DNA from: Poseidonia sp. | GTDB lineage: Archaea > Thermoplasmatota > Poseidoniia > Poseidoniales > Poseidoniaceae | Direction: 5' to 3' | Assembly: GCA_038148515.1 (NCBI GenBank) | Contig: JAYQVP010000002.1 | Span: forward strand, 166,537 to 230,536 | DNA length: 64,000 nucleotides | Part shown: one piece after another, positions 35,350 to 36,348 of the stretch | Layout: each line of letters opens with the position of its first letter | Numbering within the stretch: the stretch's first letter is position 1 | The notes under the pieces: model-generated | What the model was told of the DNA's origin: nothing | What the model saw: the letters and a program-made list of their open reading frames with translations, nothing else | The model's database searches: none | Position numbers and translations under genes: made by a program

Positions 35350-36348
35350 ATGGCTCATATCGCTGTGTTGGGATTGGGGAACTGGGGCACGGCCATCGCT
35401 CGGTTGTGGTTGCTCGAAGGGCACAAAGTCAAGGGGTGGACCATCGAACAGGAGGTTTACGAGTCCATCACCATGAATGATGTCAACGAAAAATACCTGC
35501 CCGACCATCCTGTCGTCGGTTTAGATGCCACGATGCACATCGAGGAAGCCATTCAAGGAAGCGAAATCATTGTGCTCGCTGTACCCTCATCCGTGATTCT
35601 CGATGTTGTGGAGGATGTCTTACCCCACCTGCAACCAGGCCACGTACTGCTTGATTTGGCCAAAGGCTTGGCTCCCGGCAAGAGTTTGATCTCCGAGGCC
35701 ATTCACGCCCGGCTCAAACAGGAAGGCAAAACCAATCCGCTTGCGGTGCTCACGGGCCCCACCATCGCCCCTGAGGCGGCTGGAGGCGTCATGACCACAG
35801 CCTTGGTCGCCAGCGAAGACCAAGCTGTCGCCCAACGATTAGCGCAGACCTTGAGCACGCCGAGTTTCATCCTCCATCCCGCCAGTGATCCAGTGGGTGC
35901 AGAATTGTGGGGGGCTTACAAGAACGTCGTGGCCTTGGCTTGCGGCCTGGTTGACGGCTTGAAGCAAGTCGGCGATTTAGGTGGCGACAACCTGAAGGCA
36001 GCGATTTTCATGTCGGGATTCAAGGAAGGATGCTTGCTTTTGGCGGAATTAGGCGCTCGAGCAGAAGTCGCATTCGGACCTGCTGGATTGGGCGACATGT
36101 ACGTTACCGCCACCTCACCGCACGGTCGCAACCGAACGATGGGTGAGAAATTGGGAACCGGGCTGAGCCTTGAGGGGGCGCTCAAAGAAATGCACATGGT
36201 GGCCGAGGGTGTTCGCGCCACGCGAATGTTTGTGGAACGGGCGGAGGATGCAAGGCTGAGCATCCCCTTCACCAAAGCCCTCAACACCCTGCTCAACGGC
36301 GACATCGACGCCGAAGAGTGCTGCCGCAGAATGGTAGCTTTGGGTTAG
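35350..36348 (+). CDS. gpsA: NAD(P)H-dependent glycerol-3-phosphate dehydrogenase (bacterial GpsA type)
   Basis: 'IAVLGLGNWGTAIA' is the N-terminal Rossmann motif, 'GLAPG' is central, and 'NRTMGEKLGTG' is at the C-terminus. Confidence 0.8.
   Translation: MAHIAVLGLGNWGTAIARLWLLEGHKVKGWTIEQEVYESITMNDVNEKYLPDHPVVGLDATMHIEEAIQGSEIIVLAVPSSVILDVVEDVLPHLQPGHVLLDLAKGLAPGKSLISEAIHARLKQEGKTNPLAVLTGPTIAPEAAGGVMTTALVASEDQAVAQRLAQTLSTPSFILHPASDPVGAELWGAYKNVVALACGLVDGLKQVGDLGGDNLKAAIFMSGFKEGCLLLAELGARAEVAFGPAGLGDMYVTATSPHGRNRTMGEKLGTGLSLEGALKEMHMVAEGVRATRMFVERAEDARLSIPFTKALNTLLNGDIDAEECCRRMVALG

Follow-up and report, generated by a model that had tools for sequence, protein, structure and literature searches.

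The stereochemistry of glycerol phosphate is the sharpest biochemical divide between Archaea and Bacteria/Eukarya. GpsA enzymes reduce dihydroxyacetone phosphate (DHAP) with NAD(P)H to sn-glycerol-3-phosphate (G3P), on the biosynthetic route to the phospholipid backbone, and a gene of this family in an archaeon raises the question of what its product is used for there. We addressed this question for a gpsA gene in a 64-kb stretch of DNA (the window), for which a sequence-only reading had claimed a canonical bacterial GpsA in an archaeal context. Marine Group II (MGII), to which the host belongs, are among the most abundant ocean-surface archaea and, without the archaeal-backbone enzyme, keep the bacterial one under strong purifying selection. 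Our analysis makes it probable that the window holds a functional Poseidonia gpsA, expressed from an archaeal promoter, inherited vertically and supplying G3P to the membrane-lipid backbone, of which the activity and stereochemistry, the transcription start and the fate of G3P are deduced. The gene as such was already known from MGII, in work published since 2016–2018, and the locus is an ordinary one for its lineage.

Assignment of the gene and of its host

One long plus-strand frame in the ORF list terminates at 36348, and its ATG at 35350 gives a protein of 332 residues. An alternative in-frame GTG at 35311 would lengthen this to 345 residues (13 more). We place the start at the ATG, since the GTG overlaps the TATA element described below and every orthologue can be aligned from the ATG onwards (MAHIAVLG...), which puts the Rossmann motif at residues 8–13. 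The coordinates of this and the other features discussed are collected in Table 1.

Table 1. Features of the window referred to in the text (positions are those of the window).
Feature	Position	Strand	Remark
Acyl-CoA dehydrogenase	17540–18688		Beta-oxidation gene
MIP channel	19977–20600		
Lumazine synthase, short, divergent	31725–32117	−	TIGR00114 68.5 bits, below cut-off 84.6
RibL-type CTP_transf_like protein	32735–33175	−	Between RibB and riboflavin synthase
TIM-barrel protein, AP_endonuc_2 family	34079–35254	+	Upstream of gpsA; acidic tail
BRE-like purine-rich stretch, CCCGAAGTGG	35305–35314	+	Directly 5' of the TATA box; putative BRE function
TATA box, TATATA	35315–35320	+	29 nt before the ATG; offset −35 to −30
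gpsA CDS	35350–36348	+	332 aa; Pfam and NCBIfam above curated cut-offs; full-length match to 3k96
Conserved 71-aa ORF, predicted stand-alone winged-helix	36393–36608	+	Downstream of gpsA
Transferrin-like binding protein of ABC transporter	38189–39220		
tRNA-Gln(CTG)	39323–39397	−	
RqcH_arch	42332–44524		Archaeal equivalog
Thiolase	45574–46848		Beta-oxidation gene
RNase PH-domain gene	46821–47684		

Pfam assigns residues 4–160 to PF01210 (NAD_Gly3P_dh_N, 2.3e-35) and residues 180–324 to PF07479 (NAD_Gly3P_dh_C, 2.5e-36), and the bacterial C-terminal family PF20618 (GPD_NAD_C_bact) matches as well (2.3e-14), all three above the gathering score. Two NCBIfam models of GpsA subfamilies also exceed their cut-offs (NF000942, 268.5 bits against 257; NF000940, 212.2 bits against 202). 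None of the NCBIfam equivalog models for GpsA reached its cut-off, the best being NF000941 with 229 against 423, a shortfall that we attribute to the divergence of the Poseidoniales clade. The best solved relative is the Coxiella structure 3k96 (E 2.7e-44), colinear over residues 4–328, followed in order by Leishmania GPDH, Thermotoga GpsA and Archaeoglobus GpsA. The domain and subfamily matches confirm the proposed membership in the GpsA family, and the product would thus be an NAD(P)H-dependent sn-glycerol-3-phosphate dehydrogenase (EC 1.1.1.94), whose activity and stereochemistry we infer.

The residues expected of a working enzyme are in place. The dinucleotide-binding GxGxxG motif reads GLGNWG at residues 8–13, and its three glycines (G8, G10 and G13) do not vary among 86 Poseidoniales orthologues. 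Further along the chain, K105, K191/N192, D249, T253 and R260/N261 align with K125, K210/N211, D263, T267 and R274/N275 of Leishmania GPDH (1evy), which we take, from published structures, to have catalytic or substrate-binding roles; all of these positions of the window protein are likewise invariant in the 86 orthologues. Given this conservation, and with only 101 of the 332 positions invariant overall, the gene is evidently intact at its active site and under strong purifying selection. Mechanistically, NAD(P)H would be bound by the N-terminal Rossmann domain through GLGNWG, and DHAP would be reduced to G3P at a standard GpsA active site built from the aligned residues.

Sequence comparison across metagenomes places the contig firmly in the Archaea. 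An identical GpsA protein occurs on 19 metagenome contigs, all sharing the gene order of the window, and the nearest protein clusters, at 89–90% identity, carry the NCBI names Poseidonia sp. or Poseidoniaceae. With one genome taken per GTDB species, 204 stretches encode a relative; the best 80 of these (58–95% identity) come from Poseidoniales MAGs or single-cell genomes of the families Poseidoniaceae and Thalassarchaeaceae, the closest being Poseidonia sp. ME_XS_2305_bin_45. Three of the best 80 are labelled otherwise, namely as Verrucomicrobiales bacterium ARS100 (L014 and L016) and Yoonia sp. (L070). These labels, together with the bacterial-type RNase PH, riboflavin synthase alpha and thiolase of the window, are what could be said for a bacterial or chimeric contig whose archaeal context is an artefact of binning or assembly. 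However, the gene order at L014 and L016 is that of the Poseidonia loci, and at L070 the TIM-barrel gene and ribB are missing but the small ORF and the ABC genes are retained; because all three share gpsA-flanking genes with Poseidoniales loci, we regard them as mis-binned archaeal contigs. The other 77 have Poseidoniales, Euryarchaeota or Thermoplasmatota labels, and include the single-cell genomes AG-333-I22 and AH-287-P07 and contigs of up to 333 kb.

Within the window itself, the archaeal equivalog RqcH_arch scores 487 bits against a cut-off of 400, GC content is uniform (0.53–0.59) along the 64 kb and shows no step at gpsA, and the promoter has the conserved BRE/TATA architecture described below. 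A bacterial contig is therefore effectively excluded. From the gene order common to Poseidonia MAGs (matches of up to 95%) and the archaeal RqcH, we conclude that the contig is archaeal and belongs to Poseidonia (Marine Group IIa, Thermoplasmatota), in agreement with the archaeal context first proposed. Of the archaeal hallmarks on which that proposal drew, the tRNA-Gln, the RibL-type protein and a short, divergent lumazine synthase were found. The neighbours are not all of archaeal type: riboflavin synthase and RNase PH are bacterial-type. The RNase PH-domain gene was considered as a marker of the archaeal exosome and rejected, since it matches bacterial RNase PH (TIGR01966, 240.7 against 141.5) and not Rrp41/Rrp42. 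An Rfam scan of the window for archaeal RNAs and rRNA returned two tRNAs only and no rRNA. The bacterial-type neighbours fit the known mosaic gene content of the group.

Promoter and neighbouring genes

The sequence-only reading had placed a TATA box shortly before the gene, and TATATA is found exactly there. It is the sole TATATA in the 64 kb, against about 7 expected from base composition by our own estimate. We compared 44 distinct upstream sequences, from the window and the 43 orthologous Poseidonia loci with a GpsA identity of at least 87%. TATAAA stands at −35 to −30 in 42 of them; the two exceptions are the window, with TATATA, and one sequence in which the element is offset by a base. 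Ahead of the TATA element, at the position of the purine-rich stretch of the window, the orthologous loci carry CCCGAAATGG or close variants containing GAAA. The mean majority-base fraction of the 44 sequences is 0.85 over −50 to −28 as against 0.52 over −90 to −51, and at third codon positions of the first 30 codons it is 0.66, below that of the promoter block. More distant families present other A/T-rich elements at about −45 to −30.

This good comparative evidence supports an archaeal BRE/TATA promoter belonging to gpsA itself. Taking the distance from TATA box to start site that is usual in archaea, we infer a transcription start near 35343–35346 and a leader of roughly 4–7 nt, so the very short leader claimed earlier agrees with the conserved block. 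Expression would then proceed from this promoter with a leader of probably 4–7 nt, possibly together with the small gene that follows.

That small gene, an ORF of 71 codons, lies 40–90 nt behind gpsA, in the same orientation, at nearly all loci of the Poseidoniaceae and Thalassarchaeaceae. Homologues were found in Poseidoniales only, and it matches no Pfam domain. Its AlphaFold model (pLDDT 77.6) has an H-H-H-beta-hairpin topology, and Foldseek aligns the model with SmtB/MarR DNA-binding domains at TM 0.67–0.74 with weak E-values of about 0.02. The protein is thus predicted to be a minimal winged-helix domain, and gpsA is possibly co-transcribed with it. It may be a dedicated regulator, whether for gpsA or for the transferrin-like ABC importer beside it. 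At two loci an insertion lies between gpsA and the transporter, and there the small winged-helix gene stays with the transporter and not with gpsA.

The transporter, of the PhnE/PhnC ('phosphonate') type, is convergent to the 71-aa ORF and holds this position in most Poseidoniales loci. GpxB, a recently described glycerol-phosphate importer, belongs to the same transporter family (PMC12718374), and a GpxB-type importer was tested here because scavenging would have explained the missing G1P dehydrogenase (G1PDH). The candidate was rejected: the 60 PDB matches listed for the binding protein are all transferrins or members of the transferrin family (best 5.9e-23), without a PhnD or GpxB chain among them. 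Its LDGG aspartate, YY tyrosine, CHTGxxxSAG anion site (Lys in place of Arg) and GYGGA tyrosine align with those of transferrins and lactoferrins. By its sequence, the transporter beside gpsA looks like an iron importer. In some Thalassarchaeaceae the small winged-helix gene is followed by a DtxR-type iron-dependent repressor.

Upstream of gpsA lies a gene for a TIM-barrel protein, which is paired with gpsA in Poseidoniaceae only and whose close homologues are called deoxyribonuclease IV by JGI. As a possible glycerol-phosphate isomerase or epimerase partner it found no support: its one hit is to the generic AP_endonuc_2 family, with no NCBIfam and no informative PDB match, and the confinement of the pairing to Poseidoniaceae, together with the separate promoter of gpsA, leaves the partnership unsupported. 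A riboflavin cluster on the opposite strand, farther upstream, comprises RibB, the RibL-like protein, riboflavin synthase and a short lumazine synthase.

Origin of the gene and fate of its product

Searched exhaustively with HMMER, 1.84 billion cluster representatives yielded one full-length relative at 65% identity and several fragments, after which identity drops sharply to at most 41%. The named near relatives are all bacterial (Anaerotignum, Clostridium and Ca. Nomurabacteria), while most near relatives are unnamed metagenome proteins: among 20 cluster representatives looked up, 3 clusters had an organism name, bacterial in each case, and 1 had a function name only. In a neighbour-joining tree of 143 sequences, Poseidoniales GpsA formed one clade in 100 of 100 bootstraps, and the sister group of this clade received at most 5% support. 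Published GpsA trees are likewise poorly resolved (PMC6431249). The description as a canonical bacterial GpsA therefore stands at the family level, but the Poseidoniales enzymes are a deep clade of their own.

With no more than 41% identity between this clade and any other protein cluster, the gene does not stem from a recent transfer. The gene is present in both Poseidoniales families, with conserved neighbours. An old acquisition followed by vertical descent within the order would fit these sequences, the source most likely being Bacteria.

The next point is what becomes of the G3P. Rinke et al. found G1PDH in 0 of 270 Poseidoniales MAGs, an absence that rests on MAGs and homology searches and leaves room for a non-homologous route to G1P, and G3PDH in all Poseidoniales genera but one; they reported the other parts of the archaeal ether-lipid pathway to be present (PMC6461757). 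PlsC homologues and GGGPS/DGGGPS are likewise known from MGII (PMC6962369). The claimed bearing of gpsA on the lipid divide is supported. As the order is without G1PDH in these accounts, GpsA would be its only known internal source of glycerol phosphate and so most likely supplies the lipid backbone, where G3P would be converted to isoprenoid ethers by GGGPS/DGGGPS, to PlsY/PlsC-type esters, or to both. More specifically, sn-G3P from GpsA, as the sole former of glycerol phosphate, may feed the archaeal GGGPS/DGGGPS directly and yield G3P-based isoprenoid ethers, possibly with PlsY/PlsC esters in addition; this version, which the literature already contains, we hold only tentatively. On the other side, MGII-dominated water was found by Besseling et al. 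to be without known archaeal intact polar lipids (PMC6962369), and Coleman et al. doubted a role of archaeal PlsC/PlsY homologues in making membranes (PMC6431249).

The gene neighbourhood was searched for the partners that such a pathway involves. Pfam and NCBIfam searches of the 55 window ORFs (Pfam domains Fe-ADH_2/DHQ-synthase-like, PcrB/GGGPS, UbiA, G3P_acyltransf and Acyltransferase) found no gene for G1PDH, GGGPS, DGGGPS (UbiA), PlsY or PlsC in the window, and no lipid gene (GGGPS, DGGGPS, CarS, PlsY or PlsC) adjoins gpsA at any locus examined. Gene context consequently gives the lipid role no support. The hypothesis of a G3P backbone in Poseidoniales is already in the literature, and this locus neither adds to it nor excludes it.

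The same separation from lipid genes can be read in favour of another use of the enzyme, in which GpsA is active but its G3P goes to polar head groups, CDP-glycerol, solute synthesis or the balance of NAD(P)H and DHAP, while an unrecognised enzyme, or uptake, would provide the G1P of the backbone. GpsA also occurs in archaea whose lipids are of the normal G1P type, Archaeoglobus fulgidus (1txg) being an example, and the family is sporadic across archaeal classes (PMC6431249). Moreover, archaeal lipids are formed by E. coli into which archaeal lipid genes have been introduced, although it has no known G1PDH (PMC6431249, PMC13400652), which means that unknown routes to G1P exist. Against this, the 270 Poseidoniales MAGs almost all have GpsA and all lack G1PDH (PMC6461757), the invariance of the active site in 86 orthologues fits an essential housekeeping role, and the binding protein of the adjacent importer is transferrin-like rather than of the GpxB type. 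We consider a non-backbone role, the main rival, doubtful, although worth keeping in view beside the preferred supply of backbone G3P.

A catabolic direction deserves far less weight. GpsA would here oxidise G3P from scavenged phospholipids to DHAP as part of lipid and fatty-acid degradation by MGII, which have been described as lipid degraders (PMC6461757, PMC9723583), and the window does hold beta-oxidation genes for an acyl-CoA dehydrogenase and a thiolase. However, no GlpK, GlpD, GlpT or Ugp gene is nearby, with GlpK (FGGY) and GlpD/GlpA (DAO) absent both from the window and from the 12 loci with Pfam annotation, and the MIP channel scores higher with the aquaporin Z model than with the aquaglyceroporin model, both scores being below the cut-offs. 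The GpsA-type NAD(P)-linked enzymes are biosynthetic, with an equilibrium towards G3P, and catabolic oxidation is normally the task of quinone-linked GlpD/GlpA. Nor does the protein group with catabolic enzymes, a concern of the sequence-only reading: it is a GpsA and not an FAD-dependent GlpA/GlpD, and its score with 1txg is 105 bits as against 155 bits with 3k96. A catabolic role is thus unlikely, and the biosynthetic supply of G3P to the backbone continues to be the preferred reading.

If MGII membranes were G3P-based or mixed, this would inform models of the origin of the eukaryotic membrane and would affect the interpretation of TEX86 and other archaeal lipid proxies; G3P isoprenoid ethers in Poseidoniales, if real, would mean that the lipid divide has been crossed in nature. 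The locus brings no new evidence on MGII lipids and is a well-preserved instance of a known gene. Its use is practical: the sequence is clean and complete, its start codon and promoter are defined, and it could serve in expression, complementation and chiral-product assays.

Comparison with known systems

EgsA and GlpA/GlpD act on the same DHAP/glycerol-phosphate couple with folds unrelated to that of GpsA, and unlike them the window protein is without an Fe-ADH/DHQS-like or DAO/FAD domain. Within its own family, the GpsA of A. fulgidus likewise comes from a euryarchaeon, but it is farther from the window protein (E 3.9e-29) than bacterial GpsA is. Since A. fulgidus possesses G1PDH and makes ordinary G1P lipids, the backbone there cannot come from its GpsA.

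With bacterial GpsA (Coxiella burnetii 3k96, Thermotoga maritima 1z82 and the PRK00094 subfamilies) the window protein shares the same two-domain fold, colinear over the full length, and has in common the nucleotide-binding motif and the catalytic Lys, Lys-Asn, Asp, Thr and Arg-Asn set. It is only 36–41% identical to them, however, and carries a five-residue insertion, QVGDL, at about residues 206–210 relative to the Coxiella, Leishmania and Thermotoga chains. The gene differs further in its archaeal host, its archaeal-type promoter and its location outside a plsY/der/engA-type context.

The closest comparison is with the GpsA of Poseidoniales (MGII) described by Villanueva et al. 2017, as cited in PMC6461757, PMC6962369 and PMC7852524, and surveyed in 270 MAGs by Rinke et al. 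2019 (PMC6461757); the earlier statement that archaeal GpsA is known mainly from Marine Group II/III-like lineages thus has its published basis. Our analysis makes minor additions to the MGII accounts searched, in which we did not find the BRE/TATA element, the winged-helix neighbour and the isolation of the clade; the invariance of the active site across 86 orthologues and the conserved arrangement of gpsA, winged-helix gene and transferrin-like ABC transporter are equally minor. In gene, lineage and gene order the window agrees with what has been described, at 89–95% identity to Poseidonia MAG proteins and with no difference of substance, and its gpsA is a further member of that group.

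The region upstream of gpsA

Throughout Poseidoniaceae, gpsA is preceded by a gene for a TIM-barrel protein, matching AP_endonuc_2 and named deoxyribonuclease IV by JGI, which carries a long, acidic, low-complexity C-terminal tail. In a protein search, its barrel shares 94–96% identity with the close homologues listed, several of them named Poseidonia; this is higher than the 89–90% of the closest GpsA clusters among the matches listed in the same kind of search. The protein gave no NCBIfam match and no informative sequence match in the PDB.

Well upstream of the BRE/TATA promoter element of gpsA lies a second short conserved block, with the consensus CAAATCC across Poseidonia gpsA upstream regions and the sequence CAAACGC in the window. 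This block could serve as a 3'-end signal for the gene before it, or else as a site for a regulator.

Coordinates (window numbering) and strands of the features discussed
Feature	Position	Strand	Remark
Molybdoenzyme cluster, xanthine dehydrogenase/CO dehydrogenase type; XdhC maturation factor nearby	1144-6471 and 15142-16080	-	
1361-aa ORF	10470-14555	+	
2-oxoacid dehydrogenase E1 alpha/E1 beta fusion, 884 aa	20584-23238	-	
TIM-barrel protein	34079-35254	+	
Second conserved block	35278-35284		about -72 to -66 from the gpsA ATG
71-aa ORF	36393-36608	+	directly 3' of gpsA
ABC transporter permease	36610-37524	-	
ABC transporter ATPase	37521-38192	-	
ABC transporter binding protein	38189-39220	-	PF12974 match
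RNase PH-domain protein	46821-47684	+	TIGR01966 match
tRNA-Phe	47771-47846	+	
Sm_multidrug_ex-domain ORF, 759 aa	47808-50087	+	start as mechanically listed
2152-aa protein	56441-62899	-	FG-GAP and thrombospondin type 3 repeats

The small downstream ORF and loci labelled bacterial

Across both families of Poseidoniales, almost every locus retains the 71-aa ORF, whose homologues are confined to this order. It contains no Pfam domain; the predicted structure of its product is that of a SmtB/MarR-like winged-helix domain standing alone. Where an insertion separates it from gpsA, the ORF remains beside the ABC transporter and not beside gpsA, and in some Thalassarchaeaceae it is followed by a DtxR-type repressor.

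Poseidoniales gpsA loci also occur on contigs of MAGs labelled as bacteria (94% identity for L014/L016 and 70% for L070, all numbered among the best 80 of 204 relatives). Loci L014 and L016, on contigs NZEQ01000021/30 of 'Verrucomicrobiales bacterium ARS100', present the complete archaeal gene order, while L070, on contig CAXRJJ010000119 of 'Yoonia sp.', has neither the TIM-barrel gene nor ribB but retains the ABC transporter genes together with the small ORF. These contigs look mis-binned; ARS100 has two of them, that is, two archaeal strains.

Other genes of the window

The RNase PH-domain protein matches RNase PH of bacterial type (TIGR01966, 240.7 bits against a cut-off of 141.5); the archaeal exosome subunits Rrp41 and Rrp42 were rejected as its identity, with only 65.7 and 27.7 bits. 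The listed start of the Sm_multidrug_ex-domain ORF falls within the tRNA-Phe gene, and the true start must therefore lie further downstream.

The molybdoenzyme cluster comprises 2Fe-2S, molybdopterin-binding and FAD-binding subunits, with MoeB-like and MoCF genes elsewhere in the window. The 884-aa protein combines E1 alpha (E1_dh) and E1 beta (Transket_pyr, Transketolase_C) on a single chain. Homologues of the 2152-aa protein (about 2170–2260 aa) are found repeatedly near gpsA in other Poseidoniales loci, and the 1361-aa ORF has no Pfam match.

The 'phosphonate' ABC transporter

We found no publication describing the MGII 'phosphonate transporter' as a transferrin-like Fe(III) importer. Despite its PF12974 match, the binding protein has lactoferrins and transferrins as its best solved relatives (5.9e-23), and the iron-ligand Asp and Tyr motifs, together with the CHTGxxxSAG anion site, can be aligned between the two. 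What the literature calls a 'phosphonate transporter' in MGII may be an Fe(III) importer of transferrin-like type.
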